Shown here one piece after another: positions 51,881 through 58,975 of a DNA stretch of 64,000 nt. The number at the start of each line of letters is the position of its first letter. Position 1 is the stretch's first letter. The stretch lies in NCBI GenBank assembly GCA_048265145.1, contig JBLXCF010000008.1, forward strand, positions 67,570-131,569, read 5' to 3'. The notes under the pieces were generated by a model. It was not told the DNA's origin. It ran no database searches and was given only the letters and a program-made list of their open reading frames with translations. Position numbers and translations under genes: made by a program. Origin of the DNA: Aequorivita sp. Its GTDB lineage: Bacteria; Bacteroidota; Bacteroidia; Flavobacteriales; Flavobacteriaceae.

Positions 51881-52303
51881 ATGAAAAAATTACTGAATAT
51901 TGAATTAAAAGAGAACACAGTTGGTATGGCTGTCTTATTATTAAGGTTGGGTGTGGGTATAATGATGCTTGTTCATGGAATTCCAAAACTATACATGCTG
52001 TTTAGCGGAGATATTCAGTTTCCCATTGTTATGGGGATGAGCGCAACGTTTTCATTAGTATTAACTGTGGTTGCAGAAGTTTTATGCTCTATATTACTGC
52101 TAATTGGACTTTTTACCAGAATAGCGGCCATTCCATTAATTATAACCATGTTGGTAGCCGTATTGATGATTCACGGTAGCGATCCATATGCCTTGAAAGA
52201 ATTAGGACTGTTTTACTTGTTGGCCTATGTAGTTTTGTTAATACTTGGCAGCGGTAAATATTCTTTTGATGCTATTTTGAAAAACTATCAATTAGAAAAA
52301 TAG
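51881..52303 (+). CDS. DoxX family membrane protein
   Basis: LLLRLGVG.MM..HG..K, LLIGLFTR and G.GKYSFD motifs. Confidence 0.9.
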   Translation: MKKLLNIELKENTVGMAVLLLRLGVGIMMLVHGIPKLYMLFSGDIQFPIVMGMSATFSLVLTVVAEVLCSILLLIGLFTRIAAIPLIITMLVAVLMIHGSDPYALKELGLFYLLAYVVLLILGSGKYSFDAILKNYQLEK

Positions 52304-52324
52304 ATATTGTTAATATTTACAGCT

Positions 52325-52891
52325 ATGTCCGTGTCAAAAACCATATTGGTTAGGTCACTTGTGCTTTTTCAAACCCATGGAATCAAGACCGTTAGAATGG
52401 ATGATATAGCCCGAGAAATGGGTTTATCAAAGAAGACCATTTATCTTCATTATGGCAGTAAAAAGGAATTGGTTCAAAAATGTATTCACCATCTTTTTGA
52501 TTTACATTTTTCAAATATCAAAAGGATTCAAGATGAAAGGGGAACACCGATAGAGAAAATAAAAAAGATTTATGAATACGCCGTAAAACATTTAATAAAA
52601 GTTACACCTAATTTTTATTTTGATTTAAAAAGAGGTTATCCGGAAACCTATCAGTTTTATGCCCTTCAACGCGGTAAAATAGTTTTTGGTATAATTAAAA
52701 CCTTATTGAAAAAGGGGCAAAGGAGTGGTGAAATAGACCCCACAATCAATACCCAGTTGTTTTGTGAATTTCATCTGATAAATCTTGATCAAGTAATAAG
52801 CCATAAAACCGCGCTTATGGAATATAGCTTGCAAGACCTATTTGACAACACTATTAGAGTGAGCCTGAATGGTATTATTAAAAGACAATAA
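52325..52891 (+). CDS. TetR/AcrR family regulator
   Basis: GIKTVRMDDIAREMGLSKKTIY HTH. Confidence 0.9.
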   Translation: MSVSKTILVRSLVLFQTHGIKTVRMDDIAREMGLSKKTIYLHYGSKKELVQKCIHHLFDLHFSNIKRIQDERGTPIEKIKKIYEYAVKHLIKVTPNFYFDLKRGYPETYQFYALQRGKIVFGIIKTLLKKGQRSGEIDPTINTQLFCEFHLINLDQVISHKTALMEYSLQDLFDNTIRVSLNGIIKRQ

Positions 52892-53076
52892 TTTATTCAG
52901 CTCTTTTTAAATTTAAATCCTGCATGTTAATGAAGGCAAGTTACTTTCCGATGCAAAATGTAATGTATGTCTGATTATCAGTTAATTAGCTATCAATAGA
53001 TACAAATAAGCAACAAGAAGTGTTGAATTATAGCTAATTAAAGACTAAAGATAAGAAAATCGGGAGGTGTAAAGAT

Positions 53077-53107
53077 AAAAAAACCGCCCCCAAATGAGGA
53101 CGGTTTT
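53077..53107 (-). terminator. Terminator of the DUF6266 gene
   Basis: Minus strand AAAACCGTCC-TCATTTG-GGGGCGGTTTTTTT. Confidence 0.8.
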
Positions 53108-53128
53108 CCAAGAAAACGTCAATCGCTT

Positions 53129-53770
53129 TTACGCAACTGTTACAGAACCTAAATAAGCGTTATTGGACACTTTAGAACCATCTTCGGAAATAAACCCTAA
53201 GAACACCTCCACATCTTCGCCGGTATATTCAGGTGGTACTGAAATACTTTCTGTTCCGGCTGACCTTGTTGGTCCAGCGGTGGTAAATACTACTTCTCCT
53301 CTTGTCCCGTTATAGAGCAAAATCAAAGTTTTGTCTGTTACCATTGCACTTCCACTGCCTGAATTGTCAGTCCAGTTAATGTCAACCGTTGATGCGACTG
53401 TGGAAGCCGCGGCACCGCCAACTACTCCGGTTAGATTACCACGGGTTACCAAAGCGTTTCCATAGTCAATGGAATAGTTAGGATAGGATCCTGTTACTCC
53501 ATTGTACAAGTTGTAAGACATTGCAGCATTGAATTGGGTCATCTTGTTTGCATACAATTTGAAACCAACCCGTAGGAAGTCTGTCATAGGTTGCAGGAAA
53601 CGAAGCACGGTTGAAAACTTTGAGCGCTGGTCAACTTGTCCTTCGGTTTTGGGGTTCGCTACGCTGGAAGGTTTGATTCGTAGGTAATCGATGCCCTTCC
53701 AGGTCCCACCGATTACATTCCCGATTTTTCCGGATACACCGCCGAGAATACCTTGATTGATGATTGCCAT
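53129..53770 (-). CDS. DUF6266 family protein
   Basis: N-terminal G.LGG.SGK.GNV.G..WKG, NP.T..Q..QR.KF and L...G.L motifs, C-terminal SN..Y.G; recognised from memory. Confidence 0.8.
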   Translation of the reverse strand: MAIINQGILGGVSGKIGNVIGGTWKGIDYLRIKPSSVANPKTEGQVDQRSKFSTVLRFLQPMTDFLRVGFKLYANKMTQFNAAMSYNLYNGVTGSYPNYSIDYGNALVTRGNLTGVVGGAAASTVASTVDINWTDNSGSGSAMVTDKTLILLYNGTRGEVVFTTAGPTRSAGTESISVPPEYTGEDVEVFLGFISEDGSKVSNNAYLGSVTVA

Positions 53771-54218
53771 AATTTATATGTATTTATGGGTTAAACAAAT
53801 GTTCGGACTTGGCACGGACTTGACTCGGCTTTTGCCCTTTCATTCAAAATTACTTCAATATATATGCTATGATTCGGGCAAGGGAATTGTTGCTTCTATT
53901 TGCTTTTGTTTGCCTTGTGGAATTTGATTTTTTGTCAGGTACCGGGTTCAGGATGTGAATGATTGGCTAAATAGTTTCTACAAGATAATCTGTCTCCCGG
54001 AAGTCAATCCCTTATTGTGGATAAAAAAAAGGGGGTTGGAATAAGTGTCAACCGGCCGATGAGGTCTGATTTGAAACGTTTTCCTACAGTGAGCTATTAA
54101 AACCTTGCCTTCCGCGATTGCTCACTTCAATATTAATTTTCAAAGATGTTCGCAAATTCAACAGCCATCCATTTCCCATATTTTTTTTCAAAAGAGAAAA
54201 GAAAAAAGGAAAAAAAAT

Positions 54219-54385
54219 AAAAGAGAAAGCTTTTAATAAGGCGGGTCTGGGAGGGTTGTCAAGGTTTTTGGAAAAAATACTACCCGGAGGGTGGAGATTT
54301 TTTGCAAAACCCGTAGGGCTTGACCTTTACAATCCTTTTGTGCGGCTTGCTGGTGCGGACCCGCCTATCTTCGCTTTTCTCTTTT
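54219..54385 (+). promoter_or_regulatory. Long hairpin 1, candidate single-strand (Frpo-like) promoter
   Basis: Arms pair: AAGAGAAAGC with GCTTTTCTCTT, AGGCGGGTC with GACCCGCCT, TCAAG with CTTGA. TATCTTCG (54366-54373) lies across a mismatch bubble. Confidence 0.6.
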
Positions 54386-54432
54386 AATTTTCACTTGAAA
54401 AAACATTGCACTAATTTTCTTTGAAAATCGGG

Positions 54433-54723
54433 TTAATGTCGCAGTTCATTTGCTTTTAATTGTGCGATTAACTCTTTTTTGTTGTAATACCGTCTGTTGC
54501 CCAAACCGTAACATTTAATTTTTCCTTTGTTAGTCCATTGCCAAAGGGTTGAGGAATTGATTTTTAGAAAATCAGCTGCTTCTGTTCTGGTCAGAAAGAC
54601 GTCCACTTGGCCGGAATGTAAATCATCTAAATAATGTTTGATTTTTTGCAGCAATTTTTCTGCTACAATATCTGTTAACTCGTCAACGTATACTTCTGTA
54701 ATTTCGATTGTTCGCGCTACCAT
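54433..54723 (-). CDS. Excisionase-like (HTH_17/MerR-like) DNA-binding protein
   Basis: LTRTEAADFLKINSSTLWQW..KG.I..Y..G.RRYY, typical of Bacteroidota integrative elements. Confidence 0.85.
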   Translation of the reverse strand: MVARTIEITEVYVDELTDIVAEKLLQKIKHYLDDLHSGQVDVFLTRTEAADFLKINSSTLWQWTNKGKIKCYGLGNRRYYNKKELIAQLKANELRH

Positions 54724-54960
54724 TTCTTCTGAATTAAGGTTTCTTAAATGTAAATTTTCCTGTTACGAGAAAAAAAAGAACTCCCTAAAAAGGGAGCTCT
54801 GACAATGAAAGCTCTAGCCAAAAGAGCCGAACGGTATAATCTACAACACCGCAACGAACCACGCCCGCAAAGAAAGGACGACCTGACAACCGAACGCCCG
54901 CCAACAACCAACGGCTGCCACAACGGACTGAAAACAATGATTTGTACATAAATGAAAGAT

Positions 54961-55125
54961 TTAAATTAAACAAAATGCCGCACCACAGGATCGGTGCGAT
55001 TGACGCAAGGGCTGTGGACAAAAAATACTACCCGATAGGGTGGAGATTTTTTTTCCAACAGGCGAAGCGAACCCTTGCGGCTCTCGCATCCGCACGCCTG
55101 TACCTTTGCTTTTTGTTTGAGTTAA
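54961..55125 (+). promoter_or_regulatory. Long hairpin 2, candidate single-strand (Frpo-like) promoter
   Basis: Arms pair: AAACAAAA with TTTTGTTT, ACAGG with CCTGT, GGTGCGA with TCGCATC, CGCAAGGG with CCCTTGCG. TACCTTTG (55101-55108) lies across a 6x6 bubble. Confidence 0.62.
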
Positions 55126-55334
55126 TTCTTCTTCCGAAATTCTATTCGGTGGATTAATTGAAGTATTTTAATCCTAAAGAGTTAAGATATTTGTGCCATT
55201 ATAAAACACATAAAAACGATGAAGGCCACTATCAATATTTTGACCTATAACGGACTGTCGGTATCAGTTTTATAAACACCTTCTTCATCCTTTGGGAAAA
55301 GTAAATAGTAGAAATCTTCAAATAGACTTTTCAT
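55122..55334 (-). pseudogene. Possible decayed small membrane protein gene
   Basis: MKSLFEDFYYLLFPKDEEGVYKTDTDSPL*VKILIVAFIVFMCFIMAQIS*... reads in one frame with two internal stops. Confidence 0.35.
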
Positions 55335-55748
55335 CGGTTACTAAATTACTAAAAATATGGAAACGTAAATGTGCGCAAACGCAGGTAAACTAGCGTAGCT
55401 ATAGTGGAAGCACGCAATGGAGAGTAATGGAATGGAGTGCTGGAACTATAAAGCGAGCCGCCTGCGAGCGGAGCAAGGGTGGTGGCTGCAGAAGCCCGAG
55501 GAAGGAGGGCGGCAGACGCCTACCGTTTACGGCAGGGCTGGCGCGATTTTTTGCTTCAGCGGCGGAAAAGGCAAGTGTGGCGTTTGAACGAAACGAAGCG
55601 GTGCCGGAGCCGTAATGGAGCAATGCCTAAAGAGTTACAATTTTGATGAGTGTTTTGTTTCGTTTATTAAGTTAAAAGTTAATTGAAGTAGACATTGGGG
55701 CATTGCGAAATGGAGGTACGAAGGCTCGCGCAGTGTAGTGAAATAGCC

Positions 55749-56317
55749 ACTCTTGTGTGCGTTGCTGAAAGTGGGTGATTGTAGAGAGAGAGGCACGAAC
55801 GAACGAAAAGAACCTACTGAAAGCAAATGGCGGATTGCAAAAAACGTGACAGCCCGATCAGCCCGCAGCGACCCGCAGGCTCGCACAATTAACAAGTGGC
55901 GGCAGACCCCCAATTAAAAAAGTGGTGAGCGGAGCGAACACCTTATCGGGGTTTGGGGGGATGGAGTAGCCACGGGTGAGGAAGGAGAGTAGCGTGTGAA
56001 GCAAAACAAGTGAACGGCAGGTGGCGAGCACCCACTGGAGCGCAAGGCACCTGGTAAGTGAACGGTATATGCAAGGGCGACCGCAGGGAGTTCATTTTAC
56101 CCTTGCAGATATGTTTTTGCGGAACAAAGCGGAACGACTGACGAACACCGCTTTACCTGCGTTGGGATGTGCGTGGGGAAAAGCAAGGGTGCGACTGATT
56201 GAGGTGGAGAGTAACGGAACCGATTGAAGGAGTACTCTTGCTGCGCGTTGCTGGAAGTGGGTGATTGTAGAGAGTGAGGCACGAACGAACGTAAAGAACC
56301 GACTGGAAGCAAATGGC
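55749..56317 (+). repeat. ~84-bp imperfect direct repeat, 2 copies (55749-55831 and 56234-56317)
   Basis: Shared core GTGGGTGATTGTAGAGAG.GAGGCACGAACGAACG; about 6-7 differences counted by eye. Confidence 0.9.
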
Positions 56318-56419
56318 TGTGCGGTGGGTTTTTTTCCTTAAATTGGAATCATCTAATTCCGCTATAGAAGGAATAAGGTTAGCTTTAGTGGTGAGGAAAT
56401 TAGGGTCAGTATATTAAGC

Positions 56420-56790
56420 ACAATAATACAATATGATTAGTGATGTTAAAACCAAACTGGAAGTTCAACCAATGGTTCAATAATTAATGATAATGCAATT
56501 AATGGTTCATAAGAAAAAGCAGAAACGGCAATGGCTAATGAAATAGGTGAATTTCTTGCCGTAGTAGTTAATGTCAGGCTTACCCTGTCTGAATAGCTAA
56601 ACTTTAGGGATTTGCCTGAGGATTTGACCAATAATAAATATCACAATGAAAAATATCAGTAGAGGAATGAGCAATTTATAAATGACATCTGGGTTGTCTA
56701 TTAAGTTTTTGATGCGAACATAGCAACAACCGCTAGAGCAAGGAACATTTTTTTCGTTCGAGAAAAACAATCTTTTTGAAGCCAAGATAA
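56420..56790 (-). pseudogene. acr3: ACR3/SBF-family arsenic-resistance transporter, 3' fragment with frameshifts
   Basis: Three frames give FLALAVVAMFAS / NLIDNPDVIYKLLIPLLIFF / SLTLTTTARNSPISLAIA...EPLVELPV. Confidence 0.75.
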
Positions 56791-56801
56791 GTATGCGGAT
56801 G

Positions 56802-58706
56802 TTATAAATCCTTCCGTTGTATTCTCACAGCATTCAATATAGCCAAAAGAGCTACACCCACATCTGCGATAACGGCTTCCCATAAAGTAGCAACACCGCC
56901 TGCACCTAATGCAAGTACTATAATTTTGACTGTCATAGCGAGAATGATATTTTGCCAGACAATGTTTTTGGTGATTTTACCCGCCTTTATTGCTGCAACG
57001 ATCTTTGACGGCTGGTCGTTTTGAATAACTACATCTGCTGTTTCGATGGTGGCATCACTACCGAGACCGCCCATTGCAATACCAACATCGGCGAGGGCAA
57101 TAACCGGAGCATCGTTAACACCATCGCCTACAAAGGCCAATTTTACTCCTTCTTTTTTAAGAGCCTCCACTTTCTCCACTTTTTCGTCCGGAAGCAGTCC
57201 ACCATAAGCTTCATCAATTCCCAAAACTTTTGCCACCTGATCTACCACTGTTTGTTTATCACCAGATAACATTACGGTTTTTATGTTTAGACGGTGCATT
57301 TCCTTGATGGCCTGATATGCATCTTCCTTTATTTCATCGGCAATAGTGATATAACCGGCGTACTTATTATCAATGGACAATACCACTATGGTATCTACAA
57401 TCTGTTCGACTTCGGCAGGATAAGCTATGTCATATTTCTTTAAAAGTTTAAGGTTTCCAGCCAATACTTCCTTATTACCAACGATGCCTTTCAAGCCGTG
57501 TCCTGCTATTTCTTCAATGTTTGAAGTTTGTAGGCCTTGGTGTTTATTATCGGCATAATCCGTTACAGCTATGGCTATGGGATGGGTCGAGTTCTTTTCC
57601 AAAGCTGCTGCTACTTTGATCAGTTCTTCTTTTTCAATTCCTTCGGATACTACTTGCTGAACTTTAAAGACCCCTTTGGTCAAGGTGCCTGTTTTGTCCA
57701 TCACCACTGTTTTTACTTGGGTCATAACATCCAAATAGTTTCCGCCTTTGAACAGGATTCCATTTCGGGAAGCAAGGCCGATACCTCCAAAGTAGCCCAG
57801 AGGTATGGAAACAACCAATGCACAGGGACAACTGATCACCAAGAATACCAAGGCACGATAAAACCATTCCCGAAACACATAATCATCCACAAAAAATATT
57901 GGGGTTACACAAAGTGCCAGTGCAAGGAAAAATACGATTGGGGTATATACTTTGGCAAAACGGGATATGAAGAGTTGGGTCTGTGATTTACGTGCGGTGG
58001 CATCCTGTACCATTTCCAAGATTTTGCTGAGTTTACTATCCCTAAACAGGGCGGTTACCTTTACTTCTGCAAGTGTATTTTGATTGATCATCCCGGCCAG
58101 TACCTGTTCACCTTTATATTTGGTATCTGGTTTGCTCTCCCCTGTTAATGCCGCAGTGTTGAAAGAGGCTTTTTCAGAAATGAGATCACCATCCAAGGCA
58201 ACCTTTTCACCAGGTTTCACTTGTATCTTTTCTCCTATTTCTACTTCTGAAGGATGTATAACCTGTGATTTTCCGTTTCTTAGAACGATAACTTCATCAG
58301 GCCTTATATCAAGCAAGGCTTTAATGCTTCTTTTGGCGCGCTTAACTGCCGAGTCCTGAAACCATTCGCCTATTTGGTAAAATACCATTACGGCAACACC
58401 TTCTTCATATTCTCCAATGATGAATGCGCCGATTGTTGCCACACTCATCAATACAAATTCATTGAAGAAATCGCCTCTTTTTGACTTTCGCCAAGCGAGA
58501 TCTAAAACTTTTCTTCCGGCGAGAAGATAAGCAATGAGGTTAATTGCCAATAAAGGTATAGTGGGTATGTCGAGGTTAAACCCATATTCCAATGTTAACA
58601 GTATAACCAAAATCAGCAAGGCAAGCAGAAGGTCCCAGTGGGTTTTCCAGCCTGTTTTTTCTTTATTAACTTTTGGGCTTAAGGGCCGGGATGTAGCTGC
58701 TTTCAT
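56802..58706 (-). CDS. cadA: P1B-type heavy-metal ATPase (Zn/Cd/Pb, CPC type) without an N-terminal metal-binding domain
   Basis: TGES, SCPCAL, DKTGTLT and GDGVNDAP motifs. Confidence 0.9.
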   Translation of the reverse strand: MKAATSRPLSPKVNKEKTGWKTHWDLLLALLILVILLTLEYGFNLDIPTIPLLAINLIAYLLAGRKVLDLAWRKSKRGDFFNEFVLMSVATIGAFIIGEYEEGVAVMVFYQIGEWFQDSAVKRAKRSIKALLDIRPDEVIVLRNGKSQVIHPSEVEIGEKIQVKPGEKVALDGDLISEKASFNTAALTGESKPDTKYKGEQVLAGMINQNTLAEVKVTALFRDSKLSKILEMVQDATARKSQTQLFISRFAKVYTPIVFFLALALCVTPIFFVDDYVFREWFYRALVFLVISCPCALVVSIPLGYFGGIGLASRNGILFKGGNYLDVMTQVKTVVMDKTGTLTKGVFKVQQVVSEGIEKEELIKVAAALEKNSTHPIAIAVTDYADNKHQGLQTSNIEEIAGHGLKGIVGNKEVLAGNLKLLKKYDIAYPAEVEQIVDTIVVLSIDNKYAGYITIADEIKEDAYQAIKEMHRLNIKTVMLSGDKQTVVDQVAKVLGIDEAYGGLLPDEKVEKVEALKKEGVKLAFVGDGVNDAPVIALADVGIAMGGLGSDATIETADVVIQNDQPSKIVAAIKAGKITKNIVWQNIILAMTVKIIVLALGAGGVATLWEAVIADVGVALLAILNAVRIQRKDL

Positions 58707-58765: not shown

Positions 58766-58975
58766 TCAGCATTCATCTTTTCTTGTTAACTGGATAGGAG
58801 GACAGGGCAAAGAACCATAAGAACAGTAAACGCAACAGTCACCTTCTTTTGGTTTTAGAACAGTTTTACACTTCTCACATTCATAAAAGAATTGACAGGA
58901 ATTTGTTGGCATATCTTCTACTTTTTTGTGTCCGCAGTTTGGACAGGTAATTTCTGATTTTAATATAGCTTCCAT
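58766..58975 (-). CDS. GDCCVxC domain small Cys-rich protein
   Basis: ITCPNCG, CQFFYEC..C and GDCCVYCSYGSLPCPP motifs. Confidence 0.9.
   Translation of the reverse strand: MEAILKSEITCPNCGHKKVEDMPTNSCQFFYECEKCKTVLKPKEGDCCVYCSYGSLPCPPIQLTRKDEC

Follow-up and report, generated by a model that had tools for sequence, protein, structure and literature searches.

Two long hairpins, el1 and el2, lie on the plus strand of a 64,000-nt stretch of the Aequorivita sp. genome (assembly GCA_048265145.1, contig JBLXCF010000008.1, positions 67,570 to 131,569; hereafter the window). Judged by fold, motifs and gene layout, each of them is probably a single-strand DNA promoter for the Bacteroidota sigma factor sigma-ABfr, and perhaps also primes synthesis of the complementary strand. 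The two hairpins are members of a large Bacteroidota-wide mobile-element family, which apparently has not been described so far. An initial annotation of the window had proposed that they resemble the Frpo promoters of conjugative plasmids but are adapted to the Bacteroidota sigma factor, and every sequence-level prediction of this proposal held on more than 100 independent relatives.

The two hairpins and their motifs are listed below, with the z score of the DNA fold and the match to covariance model R1, which is described further on. MFE stands for minimum free energy.

54217 to 54386, plus strand: el1, whole element (z -6.2; R1 match 146.6 bits, E 4e-34)
54276 to 54301, plus strand: invariant apical core of el1, AATACTACCCGGAGGGTGGAGATTTT, an exact pattern match with an ACCC/GGGT stem, a GGA (GNA-type) triloop, a conserved T.G pair and a 2-nt bulge
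54310 to 54324, plus strand: mini-hairpin in the 3' arm of el1, CCCGTAGGG, which folds with a second GNA triloop, is followed by CTTGAC and is kept in the family consensus as cccgnagggcttgacCTTg
54337 to 54356, plus strand: side hairpin looped out of the 3' arm of el1 in the MFE fold, an insertion relative to the family consensus in the covariance model alignment
54366 to 54373, plus strand: -7 element of el1, TATCTTCG, with one mismatch to TAnnTTTG (TAnnTTcG) and positions 2-7 unpaired, opposite 54231-54238
54965 to 55120, plus strand: el2, whole element, the MFE stem reaching about 54956-55130 (z -7.5; R1 match 64.6 bits, E 2e-13)
55024 to 55050, plus strand: invariant apical core of el2, AATACTACCCGATAGGGTGGAGATTTT, a GATA tetraloop variant
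55075 to 55077, plus strand: candidate -33 TTG of el2, in CCCTTGC, which is paired with GCAAGGG of the 5' arm
55101 to 55108, plus strand: -7 element of el2, TACCTTTG, exact consensus, with ACCTTT opposite CGCACC in a 6x6 internal loop

Folding of both regions as single-stranded DNA (ssDNA) had been suggested as a check in the initial annotation, which placed two imperfect hairpins of ~165 nt at 54219-54385 and 54961-55125, close to the limits obtained here from the folds and the covariance model. With DNA parameters, the MFEs of el1 and el2 were -41.6 and -42.7 kcal/mol, respectively, versus about -21 for dinucleotide shuffles, and 0 of 200 shuffles reached the native stability. The -7 elements were found where the annotation had put them, at 54366 and, in exact form, at 55101, and they do face a mismatch bubble. 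Octamer positions 2-7 make up the 3' side of an internal loop in each MFE fold, and the T and the G at the two ends of the octamer are paired. The 5'-arm loops facing the octamers read TATTAAAA (el1) and TGGTGCGG (el2) on the minus strand, as had been reported. el1 comprises a basal stem, the -7 bubble, a middle stem, a three-way junction, an A/T-rich upper stem and the invariant apical hairpin. The arms of el1 and el2 are largely unlike each other; their apical core, AAAAAATACTACCCG(N1-2)AGGGTGGAGATTTTTT, is identical and 26-27 nt long. This shared core was absent from the initial annotation. The two conserved loops are both triloops of the C-GNA-G type, a kind with unusual stability in DNA. 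Folds with RNA parameters were also stable for both hairpins, and the minus-strand RNA version folded worse. A scan of the whole window with R1 returned el1 and el2 as its sole two matches, both on the plus strand.

The family was collected by searching the pattern AATACTACCCGN{1,2}AGGGTGGAGATT against species-representative genomes. The invariant core, AATACTACCCG(N1-2)AGGGTGGAGATT, was present in exact form in at least 119 GTDB species genomes, nearly all of them Bacteroidota and covering Flavobacteriia, Cytophagia, Bacteroidia, Sphingobacteriia, Chitinophagia and Saprospiria, as well as in 48 IMG/VR contigs. Among the matches listed, 139 instances were unique, and they fell into 62 clusters below ~88% identity. 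R1, which was built from 17 el1-type copies, found 121 copies in the window and 99 loci, some without the exact core, and many of these copies are tandem el1-to-el2 pairs ~360 nt apart. BLAST searches of PLSDB identified matches in conjugative elements of Bacteroides and Parabacteroides and in small plasmids of Marivirga, Empedobacter, Elizabethkingia and Flavobacterium; R1 confirmed every PLSDB copy that was retrieved for checking. No meaningful Rfam match was found at E<=1 over 52000-58000 of the window, nor any at the gathering score in 12 loci spanning all hairpin types.

Several further observations concern the members of the family. The tandem pairs (L005, L041, L062, L064, L113 and others) have only tiny open reading frames (ORFs) between their hairpins, and the pair of the window is 748 nt apart with an HTH_17 gene between. 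Four loci with an exact core (L044, L048, L078 and L082) come from metagenome-assembled genomes labelled Peptostreptococcaceae, Spirochaetota, Rickettsiales and Variovorax, which is probably a matter of binning contamination by Bacteroidota contigs. On the core-bearing IMG/VR contigs (L120-L167), genes for ArdC-like proteins and RadC lie 5' of the hairpin, and the neighbors tested on them had no informative PHROG match; these contigs seem to be integrative or conjugative elements that were classed as viruses.

Both the fold and the strand that folds appear to be under selection. When 17 copies were aligned with MAFFT from sequence alone, 91.6% of the cells paired and 26 of 53 pairs changed on both sides, with 118 compensatory cells versus 44 after shuffling and no more than 40 with slid partners. 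In the covariance model alignment of 108 distinct copies, which leans towards structure because it is fitted to structure, the paired share of the cells is 90.1% and compensatory changes occur at 50 of 53 pairs, in 1126 cells versus 330 (shuffled) and no more than 375 (slid). Thus, the arms do covary, a point that the initial annotation had singled out for checking. An alignment-free chimera test gave -0.205 kcal/mol/nt for native arms versus -0.113 for cross-cluster chimeras (p 4e-26). These tests and the subfamily alignment were used instead of an all-type alignment, as MAFFT with RNAalifold on all types aligned the inner stems only. In 127 of 139 copies the more stable fold is that of the plus strand, not that of its complement, and the invariant T.G pairs would become A.C mismatches on the complementary strand. 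In the apical stem the pairs do not vary, apart from rare compensatory changes such as ACCT...AGGT in pES183-2. One strand of these elements thus folds as a long imperfect hairpin whose stability and covariation exceed chance.

The promoter signature sits at one place in this fold. Promoters recognized by sigma-ABfr carry TAnnTTTG at -7 and TTTG near -33 (PMC7366714, PMC2483708). The strict TAnnTTTG was found in the plus-strand 3' arm of 103 of 139 copies, versus 1-2 of 139 in three control placements (5' arm or complement). Within 400 nt on either side and on both strands of 114 copies, 95 boxes fell on that single 3'-arm spot, and almost no -7 box occurred elsewhere, save in the second hairpin of tandem pairs. 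Because the boxes are confined to this spot, the opposite-strand genes next to the hairpins generally lack a canonical duplex -7 box, and no box is available to drive a plus-strand RNA of the hairpin. Positions 2-7 of the octamer are paired in 24-57% of copies and the flanks in 80-97%. The box is thus kept only on the 3' arm of the folding strand and within the bubble, in line with the conservation that the initial annotation had asked about. The family consensus reads ...CAAGgttTTtgg-core-ccaAAAcccgnagggcttgacCTTg-(21 consensus positions)-tAncTTTgc, in which CTTG pairs with a conserved CAAG of the 5' arm. The elements of a primary-sigma promoter are therefore rebuilt in the stem, with mismatches at the element that melts.

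The usual spacing between the -33 and -7 elements of sigma-ABfr promoters is 19-21 nt. el2 has an exact -7 box together with an upstream TTG, which stands 23 nt before the box on the 3' arm, and the matching 5'-arm positions are ~19-20 nt apart. In el1, whose -7 box has one mismatch, CTTGAC plus the paired CCTTTAC after it are the candidate -33 region. Its linear TTG-to-(-7) distances of 43, 25 and 16 nt all miss the 19-21 range, because the side hairpin is inserted at 54337-54356; the 5' arm gives 20 nt. A usable spacing thus exists in el1 only along the folded path, and in copies with a 3'-arm insertion such as el1 the geometry would imply specificity for ssDNA. Folding as a general need for correct spacing was also considered and was dropped, since the linear spacing of the consensus is already 21. 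Ordinary sigma-ABfr promoters of Bacteroides and Flavobacterium share with the hairpins the -7 TAnnTTTG and an upstream TTG/TTTG (PMC7366714, PMC2483708). Different from them, however, the hairpin promoter is written opposite the genes that it would serve and could face them only after fold-back.

Since transcription from a promoter in the 3' arm takes the 5' arm for its template, RNA polymerase would exit via the stem base toward the 5' end of the folded strand. The genes predicted to be served in the window, with a feature next to one of them, are as follows.

54433 to 54723, minus strand: HTH_17 gene for an excisionase-family DNA-binding protein (Pfam PF12728, E 7e-12; the TIGR01764 excise domain is weak)
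53129 to 53770, minus strand: DUF6266 gene, the terminal gene of the island (Pfam PF19781, E 2e-99)
about 53077 to 53105: terminator-like hairpin and T-run after the DUF6266 gene

From this layout, the HTH_17 gene would be the target of el2, with an RNA 5' end near 54972 of the minus strand, and the DUF6266 gene the target of el1, with a 5' end near 54225 of the minus strand. The initial annotation had noted that both minus-strand genes lie on the correct side of their hairpins, and the relatives follow the same rule: in 104 of 125 cases, the closest gene on the 5' side reads away from the hairpin on the opposite strand, with a median of 62 nt from the stem base. The 3' side has no strand preference (73 versus 52). 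The 113 non-redundant 5'-side proteins include DUF6943 (15), RadC (8), DUF6266 (6), ArdC (3), SSB (3) and ArdA (2), as well as DUF932, PcfK, PcfJ and N6 DNA methylase; the six DUF6266 cases are loci other than the window. By its annotated families, this gene set closely resembles plasmid leading regions (PMC11541004). The genes beyond the 5' arm are thus mostly carried on the complementary strand and include early or anti-defence functions. Sequence searches of PHROGs, NCBIfam and PDB gave nothing useful for DUF6266, DUF6943 or a 574-aa neighbor.

The strand that folds was also compared with the direction of mobilization genes. The mob genes compared, for a relaxase or a coupling protein, have the hairpin strand as their template in 6 of 7 cases. 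The six are plasmids pFTRAC01 and pES183-2, a CTnDOT-like circle (NZ_OR675140.1), the integrative mobilizable element (IME) inserted in that circle, and two of three further loci; of the 8-kb loci three were informative, a number too small for statistics, and one of the two concordant ones was judged by its coupling-protein gene, not by a relaxase. The complete record NZ_OR675140.1 has mobA/B/C on the minus strand and both the tra operon and the hairpin (55039-55163) on the plus strand; the hairpin heads a nine-gene minus-strand operon including PcfK, PcfJ and DUF3873. The inserted IME has plus-strand mob genes and a minus-strand hairpin. The relaxase gene usually lies within the lagging region, the last part to reach the recipient (PMC11541004). 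Given that the hairpin strand templates the mob genes in these six cases, it is predicted to be the transferred strand if the relaxase gene lags as it typically does. In plasmids of 2.8-14 kb the hairpins adjoin mob and rep genes: the copy of pFTRAC01 (4.9 kb) is ~300 nt upstream of mobC-relaxase, that of pES183-2 (2.77 kb) is between repL and mobV, and that of pA5BP1 is upstream of rep. This adjacency in small plasmids suggests a role in primer synthesis or as a single-strand origin, which by analogy is possibly part of the function of the element.

These results agree with the following mechanism. When the plus strand of the island becomes single-stranded, during conjugative transfer or rolling-circle displacement, ~165 nt would fold back and rebuild a duplex sigma-ABfr promoter, in which the -33 CTTG is paired with CAAG of the 5' arm and, ~21 consensus positions past CTTG, the -7 TAnnTTTG is held pre-melted in a 6-nt bubble. 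RNA polymerase would start in the basal stem, copy the 5' arm and continue toward the 5' end of the plus strand, yielding minus-sense RNA for HTH_17 (from el2) and DUF6266 (from el1). The same RNA could prime synthesis of the complementary strand, as RNAs of Frpo and of rolling-circle single-strand origins do. The fold, covariation, strand specificity, motif placement and the orientation and content of neighboring genes were computed in this study; from them we infer dependence on ssDNA, the transcription starts, priming and the transferred strand. Across the family, the apical module combines an invariant sequence, the T.G pair, the 2-nt bulge, a loop of GNA or GNNA type and the A/T-rich stem. 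As a speculation, the apical hairpin and the A/T-rich stem would be a docking or nucleation module for a factor that is conserved across the phylum.

Several observations weigh against this mechanism or narrow it. The -7 box of el1 is imperfect and its paired -33 reads TTTAC. Because the consensus linear spacing (TTG-N21-(-7)) is already 21, the geometry of the family as a whole does not imply ssDNA specificity, and the same spacing would also suit a duplex promoter firing rightward. A strict TAATTTTG at 53845-53852 of the minus strand, ~75 nt upstream of the DUF6266 start and without a well-spaced TTG, means that DUF6266 may also have a weak duplex promoter. Moreover, one MobV gene shares its strand with a hairpin at a distance of 9.7 kb, and in the CTnDOT-like circle the hairpin is ~28 kb from the origin of transfer (oriT) in the inferred order of entry, which is not strictly a leading position.

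The same data were weighed against other explanations. One is that the element is primarily a single-strand origin (sso) or single-strand initiation site (ssi), at which the hairpin promoter makes a short primer RNA after conjugative entry or rolling-circle replication and the expression of neighbors is incidental or secondary. The copies in very small plasmids (repL-mobV of pES183-2, mobC-relaxase of pFTRAC01 and rep of pA5BP1) fit this explanation, and Frpo is reported to serve both as promoter and for priming, as cited in PMC12672017. Priming as the primary role is nevertheless rather unlikely, given that two or more copies can be found a few hundred nt apart on one island, that the hairpins are tightly coupled to the starts of opposite-strand genes (median 62 nt) that otherwise lack a -7 box, and that the gene set is one of anti-restriction and SSB proteins. 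The sso and the ssDNA-promoter readings are compatible and do not exclude each other. Less probable still is an ordinary duplex promoter firing rightward, from el2 into a G-rich non-coding RNA at 55360-56340 and from el1 antisense to HTH_17, with the inverted repeat as a regulatory site. The linear spacing of the consensus (TTG-N21-TAnnTTTG) would allow it, the el2 box is the only strict plus-strand -7 box before the G-rich region, and that region always follows el2-type copies (~25 loci). However, such a promoter leaves unexplained an arm of 60-70 nt that covaries at 50 of 53 pairs, the preference of G.T over A.C and the bubble at -7. In addition, only 42% of the 3'-side neighbors are on the plus strand, many of them spurious ORFs; most members of the family lack the G-rich region; and the linear spacings of el1-type copies are 16, 25 and 43 nt.

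The remaining two explanations are each highly improbable. The long hairpin, its T-rich or A-rich flanks and its stability with RNA parameters would suit a structured RNA, either a plus-strand small RNA (sRNA) or antisense RNA, or else a large bidirectional intrinsic terminator between minus-strand genes. For a structured RNA, no plus-strand -7 box is found upstream, no Rfam match was obtained at E<=1 or at the gathering score and the minus-strand RNA folds worse, and neither an RNA nor a terminator explains a conserved -7 octamer in a bubble. Alternatively, the conserved core could be an oriT or relaxase site, or the whole element a mobile palindrome similar to a miniature inverted-repeat transposable element (MITE), as the family is confined to mobile elements, is often near mob genes and is sometimes at island ends. 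An oriT is at odds with the occurrence of the same core alongside unrelated mobilization proteins (MOBP relaxase, MobV, MobB and BfmA/DUF5712), and both an oriT and a MITE are at odds with several copies per island and a fixed orientation to genes. Diverged arms around an invariant core are also the opposite of recently spread MITE copies. The duplex-promoter, sRNA, terminator, oriT and MITE explanations thus fail because none of them explains the covariation, the G.T bias, the -7 bubble and the gene orientation together.

As ssDNA promoters, the Bacteroidota hairpins would be related in principle to Frpo/ssi1-3, ssp2 and the ardA/klcA and M.EcoGIX promoters of IncF and IncI plasmids, which are likewise long imperfect hairpins of the transferred strand with mismatches at the melting region and from which the 5' arm is copied and then the genes templated by the transferred strand: ssb, ardA, methylases and other anti-defence genes (PMC11541004, PMC12672017, PMC13478746). 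It has been proposed that promoters of this class double as sites of primer synthesis (PMC11541004, PMC12672017, PMC13478746). Different from the sigma-70 -35/-10 elements of the Frpo class, however, the Bacteroidota hairpins have the -33 TTG and -7 TAnnTTTG of sigma-ABfr. They also have a three-way junction with a GNA mini-hairpin and a phylum-invariant 24-nt apical module, neither of which is reported for the Frpo type, and they are found on integrative conjugative elements, IMEs and small plasmids, far from oriT in CTnDOT-like elements. No likeness in sequence to Frpo was noticed, and because their conserved elements are TTG and TAnnTTTG, we keep them outside the Frpo sequence family (Frpo1/2 of F and ssi of ColIb).

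Similarity to rolling-circle elements is also apparent. The sso types ssoA and ssoU, which carry conserved RSB and CS-6 motifs, and the minus-strand origin of filamentous phages are likewise strand- and orientation-specific ssDNA hairpins that host RNA polymerase reads for a primer. In pMV158, with the order ssoU-oriT-mobM, ssoU is beside oriT and mobM, and the copy of pES183-2 is likewise beside mobV, a likeness of layout. Different from sso, the predicted transcript of the Bacteroidota hairpins leaves the hairpin base into genes instead of stopping in the loop, and most copies are on large integrative elements, where they head operons.

A literature search found no description of ssDNA promoters, single-strand origins or pBI143 hairpins in Bacteroidota, in agreement with the initial annotation, to whose author no such switch was known. 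In the papers examined, the ssDNA promoters described are all those of IncF and IncI plasmids of Enterobacteria with -35/-10 elements, and Bacteroidota are not mentioned (PMC11541004, PMC12672017, PMC13478746). The principle would be shared with known ssDNA promoters; the sigma factor, architecture and host phylum differ, and the invariant module is an addition. A wider reading, which we regard as tentative and rather doubtful in its full extent, is that the family is a phylum-wide ssDNA promoter and single-strand origin whose 24-nt apical hairpin docks a conserved host factor, which could be a subunit of RNA polymerase, a primase or a protein similar to SSB, so that it would be a protein-gated, fold-dependent switch. 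It would also mark, on essentially all conjugative and mobilizable elements of Bacteroidota, which strand is transferred and where the early anti-defence operons lie. If that were true, DUF6943 and DUF6266 would be candidate new anti-defence proteins.

Bacteroidota elements are the main gut carriers of tetQ, erm and other genes, and expression before second-strand synthesis is left unaddressed in that literature. A conserved, searchable hairpin built on the unusual -33/-7 promoter of the phylum would answer how such elements express genes early. It would also serve as a computational marker of the transferred strand and of early operons, and it points to DUF6943, DUF6266 and small ORFs as candidates for anti-defence or establishment genes. 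The invariant apical module poses a separate mechanistic question.

The island that carries el1 and el2 begins just outside the DUF6266 gene.

52941 to 52963: left end of the hairpin-bearing mobile island, located from contig break points with loose ends, at which genomes and metagenome contigs diverge

The break points that revealed this end came from Logan contigs, the only public run data found to carry the locus; they are flat and undirected and gave no start sites (some of the runs are labelled 'METAGENOMIC RNA-Seq'). An identical DUF6266 protein occurs elsewhere with other outer flanks (beta-lactamase/TrkA, or DUF8199), compared with TetR/DoxX in the window.

The G-rich region at 55360-56340 of the plus strand is ~1 kb long and directly follows el2. 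Its GC content is 0.50-0.55 with a GC skew of up to +0.37, ORFs of at least 100 aa are absent, and a T-run forms its end. Within it, a stretch of 76 nt is directly repeated (55756-55831 and 56242-56317, 92% identity). In other genera, ~25 loci carry the region at 75-82% identity, each time right behind an el2-type hairpin, and no Rfam match was found for it. RNAalifold gave -445 for the plus strand versus -365, with 33 of 237 predicted pairs compensatory, and variants in metagenome contigs skip 352 and 259 nt. The region is possibly one large structured RNA or, alternatively, structured ssDNA.

From 53129 to the window end, the island also encodes two P-type ATPases, Fur-like regulators, a permease and a SpoIIAA-like protein; beyond the window it continues with ~20 kb of metal-efflux cargo, including CzcA/B-type genes, and then a GmrSD gene. 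The 634-aa P-type ATPase (56802-58706) is split into pieces of 121 and 528 aa in GCA_900141955.1 (L170, 5064-6969), and its being called as two pieces suggests a frameshift in that assembly. Next to it, at 58766-58975 of the minus strand, is a gene for a small Cys-rich protein with a GDCCVYCSYG motif, whose close relatives recur 3' of hairpins near MerA-like and other metal genes.

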